A stretch of 37,700 nt of DNA from a virus (Duplodnaviria > Heunggongvirae > Uroviricota > Caudoviricetes), in IMG/VR virus record IMGVR_UViG_2541047736_000004, positions 1 to 37,700 of that record; one strand, given 5' to 3'. The position numbers and the translations under genes are program-made. How positions within the stretch are numbered: position 1 is the stretch's first letter; each line of letters opens with the position of its first letter. The notes under the pieces are model-generated. The model searched no databases and was not told the origin of the DNA. It saw nothing but the letters and a program-made list of their open reading frames with translations. This document shows positions 3,268-18,382 of the stretch, piece by piece.

Positions 3268-3966
3268 TTACGGCACTGCGTTAATCAGATTACAAATACC
3301 TCTTTTGGCAGGGTCTGAATTCAACTTCTGGAAATTGGCGTTCAACATAGCAGTGTGTAAGTGATTCTCAACCTCAAAGAATAGGTCGATTTTGCCCTCT
3401 TTGGCTGCATGTTTCTTCCAAACATTCACTTGGTCATCAGCAATACGACTGGCGCAAGTGAACAAGAACGAACTGCCTCTAGGAATGGATGTCGTGCTGT
3501 AATACTCACCATCTACTTCTACATATTTAGCTCGGAATGACTCTAAGGTTAGCTTATTGCCGTTCTTGACCGACTTAGCTTCTGCCTTACTTGTTTCTTC
3601 CTGCTCTTTAGAATGTTTCTGCGCCGACGTGGGTATGTCATTGGCCGCTGTTACGCTGACTGAACTCCCCAAACCTTTGAGGCCATTAATTTGGATAAGA
3701 TAAGCCAGCTCCAGAGCCTTATTATCAGTGAGTTTTCCACGCATATTTACCCACTGACGTTGAACCATTTTTAGGGTGTCTGCGTTCTCTGGGTTTCCTT
3801 TGAGGGCACTAGAATAGGCAGAGCTAAGCTGTTCGTCTAATTTTGACAGACGTTCGTTATCGCAGATTTTATGTTCGATTGCTGTCGAAGCCTTTTGGCA
3901 GTCAAAGCTGGCTGCAAATGCACCCGGCGATGCCACTAACAATGATGCCAGTAGGATATTTTTCAT
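3268..3966 (-). CDS. Secreted DUF1311 / lysozyme-inhibitor LprI-like protein (232 aa from MKNILL start)
   Basis: Signal peptide MKNILLASLLVASPGAFA followed by FDCQKA...ICDN...LDEQL, typical of the LprI N-terminal domain; GGAG RBS before the internal ATG at 3966; own terminator and AT-rich upstream region. Confidence 0.6.
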   Translation of the reverse strand: MKNILLASLLVASPGAFAASFDCQKASTAIEHKICDNERLSKLDEQLSSAYSSALKGNPENADTLKMVQRQWVNMRGKLTDNKALELAYLIQINGLKGLGSSVSVTAANDIPTSAQKHSKEQEETSKAEAKSVKNGNKLTLESFRAKYVEVDGEYYSTTSIPRGSSFLFTCASRIADDQVNVWKKHAAKEGKIDLFFEVENHLHTAMLNANFQKLNSDPAKRGICNLINAVP

Positions 3967-4096
3967 ATTCACTCCATAAATACAAAAGCGCATTACTATA
4001 GCACTTAACCGATCGCTTATCTCGCCCGTTCGTCATTCTTATCTAACCAGAACATGCGACTGCCACAGCACATGTCGAGGATTGCTGCATGTCCAG

Positions 4097-4645
4097 TCAC
4101 TGGTTGCCTCCTTTGCGAAGCTGGGCGGCTAACTCATCACATATGTGCGTCAAAGAGCAAAGTTTGATTGATGGATGTTCGCGCATCATCTCCACCCCCT
4201 GCGCCCGTACTTCAGCCAGGAAAGCATCGGTGGCTGGCATATTTCCTGTTGCCTTCATGGCCTCCAAAATAACCAGAACACCATCTCTCCCAATCTCCTC
4301 GCAGATAACCTCGGTGCTGTCGCCAACAACATCGCAGAATTCCTGAACTGCTTTACGAGCCAGCTCATTCTCCGCCGCCAGCGCCGAAAACTTCTCGTGT
4401 GCCAACTTAACAGCTGCATCAGCCTGCTTAATTGACTCAGTCGCTTTCTGGTGGTCTTCGGCCAGCCCTGCTAAATCAGCCTCCAGTTCGGCTAGGCGTT
4501 CATTTAATGCATCTCGTTCATCCAGTAGAGCCAGCACAACCTGAGGTGTGACTTTCATACGAAATGCCAGCAATTTTTGAGGTGTTGCTACTGTTTCAAT
4601 TGCTACTGCCGCCTCACGCAGTGCCTGAGAGTTAATTTCGCTCAC
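4097..4645 (-). CDS. Ead/Ea22-like coiled-coil phage protein (182 aa)
   Basis: N-terminus MSEINSQALREAA... and coiled-coil composition resemble the Ea22-like family of lambdoid early-left regions; start overlaps the TraR-like stop (ATGA). Confidence 0.55.
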   Translation of the reverse strand: MSEINSQALREAAVAIETVATPQKLLAFRMKVTPQVVLALLDERDALNERLAELEADLAGLAEDHQKATESIKQADAAVKLAHEKFSALAAENELARKAVQEFCDVVGDSTEVICEEIGRDGVLVILEAMKATGNMPATDAFLAEVRAQGVEMMREHPSIKLCSLTHICDELAAQLRKGGNQ

Positions 4646-4863
4646 TTCGAACCTCTCTGTTTACTGATAAGTTCCAGATCCTCCTGGCAACTTGCACAAG
4701 TCCGACAACCCTGAACGGCCAGGCGTCTTCGTTCATCTAGCGGATCGCCACACTCACAACAATGAGTGGCAGATATAGCCTGGTGGTTCAGGCGGCGCAT
4801 TTTTATTGCTGTGTTGCGCTGTAATTCTTCAATTTCTGATGCTGAATCAATGATGTCTGCCAT
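4642..4863 (-). CDS. TraR/DksA-family C4 zinc-finger protein (73 aa)
   Basis: Two Cys pairs (CCEC ... CRTCASC) at the C-terminus; size and position typical of phage TraR-like proteins. Confidence 0.7.
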   Translation of the reverse strand: MADIIDSASEIEELQRNTAIKMRRLNHQAISATHCCECGDPLDERRRLAVQGCRTCASCQEDLELISKQRGSK

Positions 4864-13692: not shown

Positions 13693-14411
13693 AAAACATC
13701 GCCGCACAGATGGTTAACTTTGACCGTGAGCAGATGCGCCGGATCGCCAACAATATGCCGGAACAGTACGACGAAAAGCCGCAGGTACAGCAGGTAGCGC
13801 AGATCATCAACGGTGTGTTCAGCCAGTTACTGGCAACTTTCCCTGCGAGCCTGGCTAACCGGGATCAGAACGAACTGAACGAAATCCGCCGTCAGTGGGT
13901 TCTGGCTTTCCGGGAAAACGGGATCACCACAATGGAACAGGTTAACGCAGGAATGCGCGTAGCCCGTCGGCAGAATCGACCATTCCTGCCATCACCCGGG
14001 CAGTTTGTTGCCTGGTGCCGGGAAGAAGCATCCGTTACCGCCGGGCTGCCAAACGCCAGCGAGCTGGTTGATATGGTTTACGAGTATTGCCGGAAGCGTG
14101 GCCTGTATCCGGACGCAGAGTCTTATCCATGGAAATCAAACGCGCACTACTGGTTGGTTACCAACCTGTACCAGAACATGCGGGCCAATGCGCTGACTGA
14201 CGCGGAATTACGGCGTAAAGCTGCCGATGAGCTGACCTGTATGACCGCGCGAATTAACCGTGGTGAGGCGATACCTGAACCAGTAAAACAACTTCCTGTC
14301 ATGGGCGGTAGGCCTCTAAATCGTGCACAGGCTCTGGCGAAGATCGCAGAAATCAAAGCTAAGTTTGGGCTGAAAGGGGGAAAAGCATTATATAAAAAGA
14401 TTTCGAAATAA
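13689..14411 (+). CDS. P: Replication protein P (DnaB helicase loader), 240 aa
   Basis: Near-identical to lambda P as recalled; start overlaps O stop (ATGA). Confidence 0.95.
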   Translation: MKNIAAQMVNFDREQMRRIANNMPEQYDEKPQVQQVAQIINGVFSQLLATFPASLANRDQNELNEIRRQWVLAFRENGITTMEQVNAGMRVARRQNRPFLPSPGQFVAWCREEASVTAGLPNASELVDMVYEYCRKRGLYPDAESYPWKSNAHYWLVTNLYQNMRANALTDAELRRKAADELTCMTARINRGEAIPEPVKQLPVMGGRPLNRAQALAKIAEIKAKFGLKGGKALYKKISK

Positions 14412-14563
14412 TGCATTGATTTTTATGTTTTTTTCTGTTCAGGTCCTATTGGTTGAAATTAATGCCACTGGGAATAAAAGTTTTAGCAAAGCCCTTCAAA
14501 AATGTTGCTGTTGTAAGCTAGAATAATGCGCCAAATTTACATTGCTGAAACCTGGAATATAGG

Positions 14564-15229
14564 ATGAAAATCATACAGTTACAAATGGTATTTTTTTACG
14601 ATTCATCAACGACTGTCGATTTCGATGGAATGTCGTATTTTATTAGGCAAACTTTTAAAAAGAAGGCAGGTATTGAATTAACAAACAATATGATGTTGGG
14701 CGTTTTACCTATGGATACCCCACCAGAGATTCCTCGTCTCCAATTGTTTTCTATAGATAATAAATTTAGAGTTCAATGCTCACTGCAGAGATGTGATTTG
14801 TTTTTTGAACGTATGGATTCTGAGCAAGAGGTAGACTTACATTTGTTTCAAGAAGTTTTCGATAGTGTGGTTGATATCCATAAAGAACTCAATAAGGATA
14901 TTATCAGAATAGGCTTGGTGGCCGTTAAGGCGGAATTAAACAACAACCCAAACAAAGAGATTGTTAAAAACTATCTTAGTAACAACATGCAGAATGATAG
15001 CGAAATAATTGAAGATATTAATTTAATGTATAATAAAAAATTCGAGTTTGAGCAGTCCATATTTAATTGTCATTTGTCGATTATGTCAGGATATGATATT
15101 GTCAGAGAACAACCAATGCTAGTGAAACAGATCGATGTGAATACAATCGAGAGTTTTATATTTAAAGATAAATATACCGCAGAAAAAACAAAAAAAGCCT
15201 TTTTAAGTAAAGTGAATGAAATTCAGTAA
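14564..15229 (+). CDS. Hypothetical soluble protein (221 aa), AT-rich island gene 1
   Basis: ORF in strongly AT-rich DNA; no recognised motif. Confidence 0.55.
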   Translation: MKIIQLQMVFFYDSSTTVDFDGMSYFIRQTFKKKAGIELTNNMMLGVLPMDTPPEIPRLQLFSIDNKFRVQCSLQRCDLFFERMDSEQEVDLHLFQEVFDSVVDIHKELNKDIIRIGLVAVKAELNNNPNKEIVKNYLSNNMQNDSEIIEDINLMYNKKFEFEQSIFNCHLSIMSGYDIVREQPMLVKQIDVNTIESFIFKDKYTAEKTKKAFLSKVNEIQ

Positions 15230-15243
15230 TGTGAGGTGGCTGA

Positions 15244-16203
15244 ATGAATAAGGATGATAATAAAAAGGATATAAAAAGAACTGCAAAAAATAATGCTATA
15301 GTCAACGATGACATGGCAAAAAGAACTGCGCATCATTCACTTTATTCTAATTCACAAGTATCGAATAGTACATCTACGTATACAGGAGGGGTACAAAAAA
15401 TTAGTAATTTGCAGATAGATAATAAAACTGCAACAGCTTCAAATAAAGAGCGGGAAAGTATATCCATCAAAGACGCGGCACCACAAAAATTAATAAAAAC
15501 CTCTCTTTTTGTTAATGAAAAAGAAATGTTGCATGAAGCTATAAAATACAGTTCAAAAGCAACTGTGCCGGTGATGGATAATACTGTCTCTAATGCCATT
15601 TTATCTAATTACTTTGTTAATAATAATTCTGAATCTACAATTTCTTTTAATAAAGAGAATGTAAAAAAATATACAAAAAGTGATATTGATAACATCCTCT
15701 GGAAAAATACCAATGATCAACTAACCAATTTTTCGCAAGAGTTGAATAAGAGCAAAAAGAATATTAATGATACTAAAAGAAAAATAGGTAAGGTAATGTC
15801 TTCATTATCTCAGCAAACTGCAAAGATTGAGCAATTTGATGCAACATTATCAAATGCTGAAAAAGATATACATGAGAAAGTTAAAAGCTTTGAATCGGAA
15901 GTAATTACAGCAAGGAACTCAATGCTGGGTGTCATTGCTTTATTTGCTTCTTTCTTTACTTTCATTTCTATTTCAGTAAACGTATTTTCTCGCGATATGT
16001 CTTTAAGCATGTCAATCTCAGTTTTGTTAGTGATATGGTCGTGCTTAATTAGCTTTATCTTTGTTTTTATGGCAGGAATTAGCAAGGGAGGAGCTTTTTT
16101 TACAAGCTCATCATTTATTAAGCATGCCATTTTTATGGTTGTGCTTTTTATTTCATCTTTCGCACTCCCTAAAGTTATTTTTAATATCTTTGCAATTAGC
16201 TGA
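15244..16203 (+). CDS. Hypothetical membrane protein (319 aa), three C-terminal TM helices, AT-rich island gene 2
   Basis: Asn/Lys/Ser-rich coiled-coil-like N-terminal region; three hydrophobic helices in residues ~230-315; starts 14 bp after gene 1. Confidence 0.55.
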   Translation: MNKDDNKKDIKRTAKNNAIVNDDMAKRTAHHSLYSNSQVSNSTSTYTGGVQKISNLQIDNKTATASNKERESISIKDAAPQKLIKTSLFVNEKEMLHEAIKYSSKATVPVMDNTVSNAILSNYFVNNNSESTISFNKENVKKYTKSDIDNILWKNTNDQLTNFSQELNKSKKNINDTKRKIGKVMSSLSQQTAKIEQFDATLSNAEKDIHEKVKSFESEVITARNSMLGVIALFASFFTFISISVNVFSRDMSLSMSISVLLVIWSCLISFIFVFMAGISKGGAFFTSSSFIKHAIFMVVLFISSFALPKVIFNIFAIS

Positions 16204-16315
16204 CTATCAGATGTTATCTTCAGTTGTTTAGGGTTGATTTAAAAGCGAATCTTAATATTTTCAAGTTTTGAATTTAGAAATAAAAAAGCCATAATATTGT
16301 CATCGGAGCCTAAAA

Positions 16316-16420
16316 AACTCCGGTGACTTCTGCGCTAAACGGGGACGTTTATGCGCACACACAATCCAAACTCTCATCTCCATTCACAGATGCAGAAATG
16401 CACCTACGATTTTTTACATT
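16316..16420. repeat. Direct repeat copy A (~105 bp, ~95% identical to 18250-18354)
   Basis: AACTCCGGTGACTTCTGCGCTAAACGGGGACGTTTATGCGCACA... occurs twice, flanking the Bro-N / 169-aa module. Confidence 0.85.
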
Positions 16421-16834
16421 CGGTGTTTTACTTCGACAGCCAGAATTGGGAGTCTCTATTCGTCTGGCGGCTAAAGGTGATATGGAAATCGTTATGTTTT
16501 GGCCTGAGGTAGTTGTAACTGTTGTAGCAGCTATGGCTGTGATCATCATGGTGTCCATTTACTGGGGTTGACGACATGATTTATCCGGCGCTATATTCTG
16601 TGCGTTGCCGCAAAATCGGCACACGGGATTGGCGTCCCGGGATACTACTCAACGCATACCGCGTTAAGCGGTTTTTTTGTGCGCTAAGCACGGCTATGCC
16701 CAAATTATGGTGGGCTGTGTGAGGGCTTCTTCGGAAGCGCCGGGTTTGAGTAGCCGGTTACGCCAACCTTACACAGTTCACCACCAGTCGATTGGCGTCG
16801 TTGGTGGTGATGGTTAACCTGATGAGGTGATACT

Positions 16835-17443
16835 ATGACTACTCAATTAGCATTCCACAAAACGACGTTTACCCCGATTTGCCACAATAACAGAATTTGG
16901 CTTACTGCCACTGAAGTTGGTTTAGCACTGGAATATGCGGACGATAAAGCAGTTCAGCGCATTTACTCTCGGCACTCAGATGAATTCACAGATATGATGA
17001 CAAGGGTGGTCAAAGTGACCACCCCTCGTGGAATGCAGGAGTCTCGAGTATTTAGCCTTCGCGGAGCCCATTTGATCGCCATGTTTGCTCGTACTCCTGT
17101 GGCCAAAGAATTCCGCCGCTGGGTTCTGGATATTCTCGATCGAGAAGTTCAACAATCCCCAATCACAAAACAATTCACTGATAACGAACTTTGCACACTC
17201 GCCTGGTTATGGCGAGCAAGTGATACGATGTTAACCGCCTGCCAGAACGTTACGCCCCTTCTTCAGGTCGCAGAGCATCGCGAAGCAGGTAGATTCACTT
17301 CAATCGAACAAGAATATCCTCGGATACTCAACAGGGCGCGAGAAATCCTTGCCAGAGAAACGGCGCATGTAAAATTCCAACCGTGGCAGGATGATAAGTG
17401 GAGTCGTGTGTTACCATATTTCCGTCAGAATCTGTTGCAATAA
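16835..17443 (+). CDS. Bro-N domain antirepressor-like protein (202 aa)
   Basis: N-terminal pattern FxxxxxxxRxxxxxGEPWF-like (ICHNNRIWLTATEVGLALEY) typical of Bro-N/KilA-N proteins. Confidence 0.6.
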   Translation: MTTQLAFHKTTFTPICHNNRIWLTATEVGLALEYADDKAVQRIYSRHSDEFTDMMTRVVKVTTPRGMQESRVFSLRGAHLIAMFARTPVAKEFRRWVLDILDREVQQSPITKQFTDNELCTLAWLWRASDTMLTACQNVTPLLQVAEHREAGRFTSIEQEYPRILNRAREILARETAHVKFQPWQDDKWSRVLPYFRQNLLQ

Positions 17444-17678: not shown

Positions 17679-18188
17679 ATGATGTGGAACTTTGACAGTG
17701 CCGACTTAAGTGCAATAGCAGCAGGCATTTCTGCGTTTGGCACATTAGCCGCAGCGGGGTCGGCGCTTGCAAGTTGGTACACGTCAAAAAAAGCGCTGCA
17801 GCTACAAAATAGAGTTTACCTTTATGAGTCTTTAAAGGCTTGCGCTGAGAGAGCCAATTCATCAGCTAAAGATAAGCGCGGATCTGAATGGAGCGTTAAT
17901 GATGCAGCGGATATCATCAGGTGCCTAGTACGGGCGATGGAGATCATCAAGCAGGATAGCCAGCAGAAAGAAGGTAATCAGGCATTAATGTTGAAACAGT
18001 ACTTTGTTAATCTGCTAATAATGGAACTGTACGAGGAAGTTCATAACGGTGATGCGGCTGATTCTGTTTTTAAAAGTACGGAACCTACACAAGTACTTGA
18101 TAACTTATGGAGCAAATGGCAGGAGGCTATAGCTTTTTTTGATATTTGGAATTACCCAGTTGCGACTGAGGAAGACTTGGCAGACTAA
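17679..18188 (+). CDS. Hypothetical protein with N-terminal hydrophobic helix (169 aa)
   Basis: ORF with a plausible RBS (AAGGTG); residues ~9-31 hydrophobic (LSAIAAGISAFGTLAAAGSALASWY); no recognised domain. Confidence 0.45.
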   Translation: MMWNFDSADLSAIAAGISAFGTLAAAGSALASWYTSKKALQLQNRVYLYESLKACAERANSSAKDKRGSEWSVNDAADIIRCLVRAMEIIKQDSQQKEGNQALMLKQYFVNLLIMELYEEVHNGDAADSVFKSTEPTQVLDNLWSKWQEAIAFFDIWNYPVATEEDLAD

Positions 18189-18249
18189 TTTTCAGCACAT
18201 TTGATTTCCAATAATCAACCAGCCATAATCATGCCATTGGAGCTTGAAC

Positions 18250-18354
18250 AACTCCGGTGACTTCTGCGCTAAACGGGGACGTTTATGCGCACATACAATC
18301 CAAACTCTCTTCTCCCTTCACAGATGCAGAGATGCACCTGCGATTTTTTGCATC
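18250..18354. repeat. Direct repeat copy B (partner of 16316-16420), directly upstream of ninB
   Basis: See copy A. Confidence 0.85.
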
Positions 18355-18382
18355 CAGCGTTTGACCTCTGCGGAGGTGAAGC

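Follow-up and report, generated by a model that had tools for sequence, protein, structure and literature searches.

We examined a 37,700-nt stretch of viral DNA (positions 1 to 37,700 of IMG/VR record IMGVR_UViG_2541047736_000004; hereafter the window), which is a lambda-like E. coli prophage, and all coordinates below are positions within it. Between gene P and the nin region this prophage carries an AT-rich island with two genes, g1, which encodes a soluble protein, and g2, which encodes a membrane protein. We found that g1 and g2 are a mobile two-gene unit shared by prophages, tiny plasmids and chromosomal islets. We propose, with a confidence that we put at about even, that g1 and g2 are a sensor or antitoxin and a membrane effector, together a self-contained mobile conflict (defence) module carried in place of ren. 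This proposal is based on the strict coupling of the two genes, on a promoter-like region of their own, on their presence in accessory slots of unrelated mobile elements and on their rarity within the species. It is based also on the combination of a constant soluble module with interchangeable partners, and on the hypervariable tail that the g2 protein has beside an invariant membrane core.

The GC content of the island was computed as 31.4% at 14412-16322, compared with 49.5% for the whole window. By gene it was 31.7% for g1 and 30.6% for g2 against 48.5% for O and 54.6% for the lambda-homologous part of P, and GC content at third codon positions (GC3) was 0.34 for g1 and 0.26 for g2 against 0.51 for O and 0.59 for P. 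With sliding windows of 1911 nt the mean was 49.5% with a standard deviation of 6.4%; the island was the minimum and the lowest value elsewhere was 39.5%. The original prediction, a reading of this DNA by eye, had described two co-oriented open reading frames (ORFs) in DNA of roughly 25-30% GC that contrasted with its flanks. The contrast was confirmed by the computation, while the value read by eye was slightly low. Both ORFs were found as described, g1 at 14564-15229 (221 aa) and g2 at 15244-16203 (319 aa), on the same strand and with a 14-bp gap, and since both are kept at full length in other genera we regard them as real genes.

The island also lies where it had been placed, between P and the nin region. 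Upstream of it are O (Phage_rep_O) and P (Phage_lambda_P), downstream is a NinB-like gene, and a separate antirepressor cassette is found between the island and ninB. When aligned with lambda (J02459) the window is near-identical through P to ~14378 and then diverges completely. This point is the P/ren boundary, as in lambda the stop of P overlaps the start of ren at the point matching ~14378. No homology to lambda Ren was found in this alignment, in which identity ends at the P/ren boundary and the sequence beyond is unrelated. P gains from the island an AT-rich tail of 11 codons (GGKALYKKISK, then stop), which replaces the lambda P C-terminus and the P-ren overlap. Megablast matches to phages on the left of the island cover 14300-14377 only. 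To the right of the island, matches to phage 82 (X92588) and to many lambdoid phages begin again at ~16266-16279 (16266-16419 in megablast). Because lambda P homology stops at ~14378 on the left and lambdoid homology resumes at ~16266-16279 on the right, the inserted unit spans ~14378-16278 and replaces ren. In other E. coli prophages whose flanks are similar, ren occupies this slot (hits H53-H60), which agrees with the earlier assignment of the island to the ren position. A conserved junction sequence of 156 nt follows, which also precedes the nin region in phage 82 and lambda-like phages and is repeated at 18213-18368 with 87% identity; this junction is the edge of the cassette slot and lies outside the module. 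A terminator-like site at 16091-16109 was discarded, as it is inside g2 and the number of such sites equals that expected by chance. The features are as follows.

14378..14411, + strand: left junction, where lambda P homology ends (lambda J02459 P-ren alignment, megablast).
14412..14563, + strand: AT-rich upstream region with a promoter-like site (consensus scan, seven-region alignment).
14564..15229, + strand: g1, encoding a 221-aa soluble protein (ORF, structure prediction with AlphaFold2 (AF2), HMMER, conservation).
15244..15663, + strand: g2 residues 1-140, rich in Asn, Ser, Lys and Thr and predicted to be disordered (AF2 pLDDT, column identity).
15676..15918, + strand: g2 residues 145-225, probably cytoplasmic helical stalk with a heptad register (AF2, heptad analysis).
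15919..16203, + strand: g2 residues 226-319 and stop, three transmembrane (TM) helices (hydropathy, charge, AF2, column identity).
16204..16278, + strand: 3' spacer between g2 and the conserved junction (sequence; the composition is AT-rich to ~16300).
16279..16434, + strand: right boundary, the 156-nt conserved junction sequence (repeat search, megablast).

The full island was found in 21 of 5,426 complete E. coli genomes (0.4%), always adjoining P. In a further E. coli genome, NZ_OZ546938.1 (hit H52, 26% of the query covered), the island is split by an IS1B element, which may reflect inactivation of a costly or toxic cassette. The post-P slot also holds a homologous pair in prophages of Klebsiella aerogenes and Kosakonia oryzae, and in an Erwinia prophage the pair is beside Dam/methylase-Exc-integrase. 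Other homologous pairs were found in a Citrobacter prophage remnant, next to icd in Scandinavium, in Leclercia, and on 12 IMG/VR viral contigs, where they lie near contig ends. Prophage carriers belong to at least four enterobacterial genera (E. coli, Klebsiella, Kosakonia and Erwinia), and islets or prophage remnants were found in three more. A g2 homologue follows g1 in every locus that has downstream sequence (20 of 20), with gaps of ~10-20 bp.

The cassette is AT-rich in all of its enterobacterial hosts, and identity between hosts is 39-64%. No E. coli g1 homologue was found at identities between 64% and 100%. Since it is AT-rich in every enterobacterial host and has diverged to 39-64%, we consider the cassette to be old and circulating. 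The composition had been taken in the original prediction to imply recent acquisition from a low-GC source; the foreign AT-rich character of the DNA holds, and the case for recency is weaker than was claimed.

A consensus scan of the window found a promoter-like site with a -35 element TTCAAA at 14495-14500 and a -10 element TAGAAT at 14519-14524. When seven upstream regions were aligned, a block CTTyAAAA…TAnAAT…ATG was conserved in the upstream regions of seven genera. This block travels with the cassette and is a putative promoter.

The g1 protein is soluble, with a maximum 19-residue Kyte-Doolittle value (KD19) of 0.54, and no named family matched it, as expected from the first reading, which had seen a soluble protein with no motif it could recognise. 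The AF2 model is confident, with a predicted local distance difference test score (pLDDT) of 90.1 and a predicted template modelling score (pTM) of 0.87, and consists of an internally duplicated beta-alpha-beta-beta-beta-alpha sandwich. Foldseek searches of the PDB with this model gave weak, generic matches, with a TM-score of 0.41 or less to AdoMetDC, TBP and ARO/CYC, and a comparison with BFVD matched a single unnamed viral protein. The g1 family profile had 0 matches at E<=10 among PDB sequences. We measured conservation over sets of 142 and 44 sequences and found conserved positions at P49, P53, E55 and P57 (the 'DAPPEIP' loop), R76, D78, R115, G117, N168, D191 and N193. The g1 of the window carries every conserved family residue. 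In the model R76 and D78 are on strand 4, R115 is on strand 5, N168 is on strand 7, and D191 and N193 are on strand 8. This suggests that the conserved polar strand residues and the Pro-rich loop may form a binding or active surface. A match of g1 to 'MobQ relaxase' was set aside as noise (17.5 bits against a cutoff of 200).

The three hydrophobic helices that had been noticed at the C-terminus of the g2 protein were recovered both by a Kyte-Doolittle scan and by AF2. The AF2 model has a continuous helix at residues 145-249, a stalk that runs into TM1, followed by TM2 at 254-281 and TM3 at 289-315. Residues 1-140 have a pLDDT below 50 and are predicted to be disordered, and this tail is hypervariable, differing strongly between genera in both sequence and length. 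In the stalk hydrophobic residues occupy 61% of a/d positions in the best heptad register and 57% in an overlapping register, compared with 8-22% in the other five. The N-terminal region had earlier been described as Asn/Lys/Ser-rich and coiled-coil-like. The richness in these residues stands, and the coiled coil does not, as residues 1-140 are predicted to be disordered and the coiled-coil-like part is the stalk at ~145-225.

Column identity over 25 g2 homologues was lowest in the N-terminal tail (0.32), intermediate in the stalk (0.53) and highest in TM1 (0.96) and TM2 (0.90). TM1 and TM2 are almost invariant between genera (…VTARNSLLAVIALFASFFTFISISVNIFSRDMSLS…). Because TM1 and TM2 stay 90-96% invariant although g1 identity falls to 39-64%, we infer that these helices have a specific membrane-embedded function. 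The charge distribution, the lack of a signal peptide and the two Lys in loop 2 indicate that g2 likely has its N-terminus in the cytoplasm and its C-terminus outside. A match of g2 to DUF2207_C was rejected as noise (18.4 against a cutoff of 33). We also rejected a phage holin or lysis identity for g2, which has no holin match in Pfam; the prophage has its essD-rrrD-rzpD lysis cassette ~7 kb downstream.

Pfam and NCBIfam gave no named-family match for g1, for g2 or for ten sampled distant relatives of g1. In PHROGs, g1 and g2 each match one PHROG only, in both cases of unknown function, and every database name for either protein is 'hypothetical protein', apart from a single g2 homologue (P0012, from Citrobacter werkmanii), which alone carries the NCBI name 'Yip1 family protein'. 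A Pfam scan of g2 at E<=0.1 returned only sub-threshold DUF2207_C and coiled-coil noise and no Yip1. A Yip1 identity for g2 was rejected, and the name given to P0012 is probably an over-annotation. It had been said at first that neither protein fits a named family, and the Pfam and NCBIfam searches, together with the PADLOC search described below, bear this out.

The family to which g1 belongs is large. An exhaustive HMMER search with a g1 profile gave 927 cluster representatives at E<=1e-3, of which 281 reached E<=1e-10, and almost every one is 220-235 aa long; a word-indexed search found only 13 clusters. A locus search with a narrower g1 family alignment found 4 genome loci and 3 viral loci. 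The result is a protein family of hundreds of clusters that has no Pfam, NCBIfam or PADLOC annotation.

In all nine distant core g1 contexts that we examined, the next gene encodes a C-terminally anchored membrane protein and is tightly coupled to the g1-like gene, usually overlapping it. These partners fall into two classes. The long class resembles g2, with a coiled coil, three TM helices and a TM1 motif ALAIFxALFTFxS (loci L013, L038 and L039), and in BLASTP g2 matched the L013 partner with E=2e-5. The short class has a Ser/Thr-rich N-terminus, a charged helix, two TM helices and a C-terminal 'GEK…K' (L011, L014-L016 and L037). Short-class pairs are found on small enterobacterial ColE1-type plasmids. 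On one such plasmid of 2.6 kb the pair makes up the only ORFs that resemble genes, and related pairs are on other plasmids of 3-7 kb. Homology between the long and short membrane partners was not supported (hhalign probability 0.7%), and architecture alone is what they have in common.

More distant g1 relatives come from Nitrospiraceae, Omnitrophota and gammaproteobacterial metagenome-assembled genomes (MAGs), and their partners are soluble; the outer-branch loci L017-L020 have soluble partners or none. At one distant locus a PIN gene then follows, and another lies in an hsdS-hsdM-x-IS21 arrangement. In this pairing of one unchanging module with exchangeable partners the g1 family resembles immune and toxin-antitoxin (TA) systems, for which such a layout is typical.

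We made two further observations at these loci. A DUF3467 protein of 91-96 aa is directly beside the pair in two unrelated metagenomic loci (L013:5704-5979 and L038:2231-2521), and in L013 the g1-like gene, the membrane partner and the DUF3467 gene are inserted as a trio between grpE and dnaK. This protein may be a third component in the L013/L038 subfamily. On a 6.8-kb K. pneumoniae plasmid (L016) a second, unrelated overlapping pair of 214 aa and 158 aa, both soluble, lies at 3689-4809 on the minus strand and is a candidate for another two-gene module.

One of the two genes has been flagged before, which tempers the novelty of our finding. Table S10 of DefensePredictor, a machine-learning model (DeWeirdt, Mahoney and Laub, Science 2026, PMC13092281), lists the g1 orthologue WP_224204944.1 (NZ_CP083585.1), with cluster representative WP_021526100.1, as a 'Predicted novel defense gene'. 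The cluster has a log-odds score of 4.99, where the cutoff is 4, and shows no homology at all to known defence proteins (PMC13092281). The island match in NZ_CP083585.1 (hit H49) has 99.5% DNA identity to the window, and RefSeq calls the window-identical g1 in NZ_CP150019 WP_021526100.1; therefore the g1 of the window belongs to the listed cluster. The entry is a one-gene score among 1,041 clusters and gives no partner, structure, family, distribution or experiment (PMC13092281). Within the literature that can be searched, we are the first to supply a partner gene, a structure, a family and a distribution and to set the boundaries, and no paper mentioning g1 or g2 was found by accession or PHROG id. 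We considered whether the pair is DS-13, TMRA or TMO2 and ruled this out by sizes and sequences; the two-gene transcription units (TUs) of similar size are different proteins. The unit D670 (1,614 bp, log-odds 3.59), judged by its accessions and not by its sequence, is probably a different unit too: these accessions are not those of g1 and g2, and E. coli has no g1 homologue between 64% and 100% identity.

In the mechanism that we favour the module would most likely act against phages, by abortive infection or exclusion, and have the build of a toxin-antitoxin pair. Both genes would be expressed in the lysogen and the two proteins would interact. The g1 protein would be a cytoplasmic sensor or regulator, antitoxin-like, that presents a conserved polar patch on its beta-sheet strands and a Pro-rich loop. 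The g2 protein would be the effector, anchored in the inner membrane by its three C-terminal helices, probably oligomerised through the coiled-coil stalk, and with its hypervariable disordered tail facing the cytoplasm. A trigger, for example a phage protein or the loss of g1 control, would be sensed through g1 and would activate g2. The membrane block of g2 may then compromise membrane integrity or energisation and so stop phage production. The idea of a defence module was already part of the original prediction, and it gains circumstantial support from the accessory slots, the tiny plasmids, the one hsdS-hsdM neighbour, the travelling promoter-like region and the DefensePredictor score of 4.99; defence itself stays a hypothesis.

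Several results weigh against this proposal. No model of PADLOC-DB v2.0.0, which include Kiwa, Zorya, CBASS effectors and PD-T4/T7/lambda, matched g1 or g2 at E<=1 or any of the ten distant g1 relatives at E<=0.1. Only one of the sampled loci (L019) adjoins a recognised defence system, and the position of the L013 pair between grpE and dnaK is an atypical context for defence. A tblastn search of 50,697 deposited phage genomes with the g1 of the window or with a distant member (P0047) matched nothing, and a megablast of the island against deposited phage genomes matched its flanks only. A Ser/Thr stripe on the TM helices of g2 was indistinguishable from shuffles (p = 0.17-0.29). We rejected a pore-lining polar stripe on this basis, and since the stripe is not significant there is no direct sign of a g2 pore. 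In the DefensePredictor data the g1 cluster score of 4.99 barely exceeds the cutoff of 4, and the g2 protein itself was not found among the rows of Table S10 that are listed. TUs of Table S6 that scored 4-6 were validated in 6 of 16 cases (PMC13092281), which gives a modest prior. The pair is not among the 94 TUs tested or the 42 validated, it has no match in Table S6, and its motifs are absent from the supplement sequences (PMC13092281). A published anti-phage test of the pair was not found in the literature or in the DefensePredictor supplements. Finally, a toxin-antitoxin or addiction role fits the same data about as well.

The last of these points is the alternative that survives best, although taken by itself we think it unlikely. 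In it g1 would be the antidote to g2, a toxin of the membrane, and the selected role would be to stabilise the carrier, be it a small plasmid, a prophage or an islet, by post-segregational killing and not to arrest phages. The pair supplies the only gene-like ORFs of the 2.6-kb ColE1-type plasmid, with related pairs on the plasmids of 3-7 kb. Tight coupling with the soluble gene first is seen in many TA operons, the g1-like module has varied downstream partners, one of which is then followed by a PIN gene, and the island of one E. coli genome (H52) has received an IS1 insertion. Against it, g1 is a protein of 221 aa in which no DNA-binding domain and no recognised antitoxin domain was found, Pfam and NCBIfam place neither gene in a named family of toxins or antitoxins, and prophages with cargo in the ren slot are in no obvious need of addiction. 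One module may act both as a TA system and in defence, and addiction thereby overlaps with the conflict module that we favour.

It is improbable that the pair is a membrane-associated accessory function that has nothing to do with genetic conflict, for example one in the envelope or in stress, or a lysogenic-conversion factor from which the host benefits. The coupling, the extreme mobility, the 0.4% rarity, the variable partners and the hypervariable region beside an invariant core are hallmarks of conflict, and they count indirectly against such a function even though both proteins are of unknown function, the prophage bears conversion-type cargo (Iss/Bor, an OmpC-like porin and an LprI-like protein) and one distant pair is inside a grpE-dnaK chaperone locus. 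Least probable, we think, is a function in the phage life cycle, expressed from pR with the early genes as ren is, whether as a membrane superinfection exclusion or injection block or as a modulator of host physiology or replication: the cassette does lie within the pR early-right operon between P and the nin genes as an exact replacement of ren, the module is present in several prophage types, and inner-membrane exclusion proteins are common in temperate phages (P22 SieA, HK97 gp15), but the pair is also on tiny plasmids and in chromosomal islets without phage genes nearby, a promoter-like region of its own accompanies the cassette, the family reaches non-phage contexts in distant phyla, and known exclusion proteins are to our knowledge single genes, whereas here the soluble partner is strictly conserved.

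Returning to the conflict module, we suggest more tentatively that g1 and g2 could be the founding example of a widespread, unrecognised two-component family, in which a cytoplasmic sensor of a new fold would control modular effectors and the tail would be the specificity element. This family would comprise ~900 clusters at 50% identity, from Enterobacteriaceae to Nitrospirota and Omnitrophota. Its sensor would have a duplicated sandwich that resembles AdoMetDC/TBP and bears a conserved polar patch, and its commonest effector would be a coiled-coil-stalked, C-terminally anchored membrane protein with a hypervariable disordered tail. If this is true, it would be a new kind of membrane-effector immunity on prophages and on the smallest plasmids. 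If the pair is defensive or TA-like at all, then a family without detectable relation to any catalogued system occupies the classic lambdoid ren slot, in a cassette compact enough for a 2.6-kb plasmid that carries little else. In either case a single-gene machine-learning score becomes a defined unit, with boundaries at 14378-16278, an obligate partner, a candidate promoter and a g1 structure. The unit also includes the conserved g1 residues, a domain map of g2 and natural partner variants (long with three TM helices, short with two TM helices, and soluble).

The prophage carries other cargo next to the island and elsewhere. The 156-nt direct repeats (16279-16434 and 18213-18368; 87%) bracket a second cassette, which contains a Bro-N/P22AR_C antirepressor-like gene and a 169-aa ORF, and the junction looks like a site at which accessory cassettes can be exchanged or stacked through homologous recombination. 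Immediately before the Bro/antirepressor gene (16835-17443), Rfam gave RNA matches within 16591-16788: isrK at 16606-16678 (58.7 bits), C4 antisense RNA at 16703-16788 (74.8 bits), and c4-a1b1 targets at 16591-16643 (39.6 bits, below the gathering score of 46.7 bits). Together with this gene they make up an antisense-controlled antirepressor cassette, P1/P7 immI-like or Gifsy-1 isrK-anrP-like, in a lambdoid early-right operon. The 169-aa ORF (17679-18188), between the antirepressor cassette and ninB, belongs to phrog_1779 (function unknown), has an Ala/Gly-rich hydrophobic N-terminus and had no match in Pfam, NCBIfam or PADLOC. The same prophage in NZ_CP150019 encodes a DGQHR-domain (DndB-like) protein in the early-left region (L001:10156-11220), and also a TraR/DksA-family regulator, an LprI-like lysozyme inhibitor, Iss/Bor and an OmpC-like porin. 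With these genes the prophage has, in addition to the island, much cargo that is accessory or a candidate for defence.

We compared the pair with known systems. Its operon layout is compatible with a type II TA system, with the soluble gene first and tight coupling, but neither g1 nor g2 has a recognised DNA-binding or antitoxin domain or belongs to a known toxin family in Pfam and NCBIfam. With Ren the island shares an identical slot, directly after P and before the nin region, and the nature of accessory, non-essential cargo. Ren differs in being a single protein of 96 aa, and the island replaces ren wholly from the P/ren boundary with no sequence in common. Defence or TA systems are known in which one module stays constant and the effectors are exchanged, small membrane toxins among them, for example PanA-type antitoxins and the TM effectors of CBASS and retrons. 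The g1 family is like them in that a conserved soluble protein occurs with long three-TM, short two-TM or soluble partners.

Homology to RexA and RexB was rejected, as the hhalign probability was 0.1% for the g1 profile against RexA and 0.3% for the g2 family profile against RexB. RexB is compact (144 aa) and polytopic, with four TM helices according to its published description, whereas g2 has 319 aa with a disordered tail, a stalk and three C-terminal TM helices. The positions differ as well, since rexAB adjoins cI in the immunity region whereas the cassette is after P at 14564-16203, with repressor-like genes ~3 kb upstream. Both are nevertheless two-gene prophage units of lambdoid phages in which a soluble protein is encoded first and an inner-membrane protein second, and for both the proposed logic is that of a cytoplasmic sensor controlling a membrane effector. 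By this analogy RexAB would be the closest functional counterpart of g1 and g2 among lambdoid phages.

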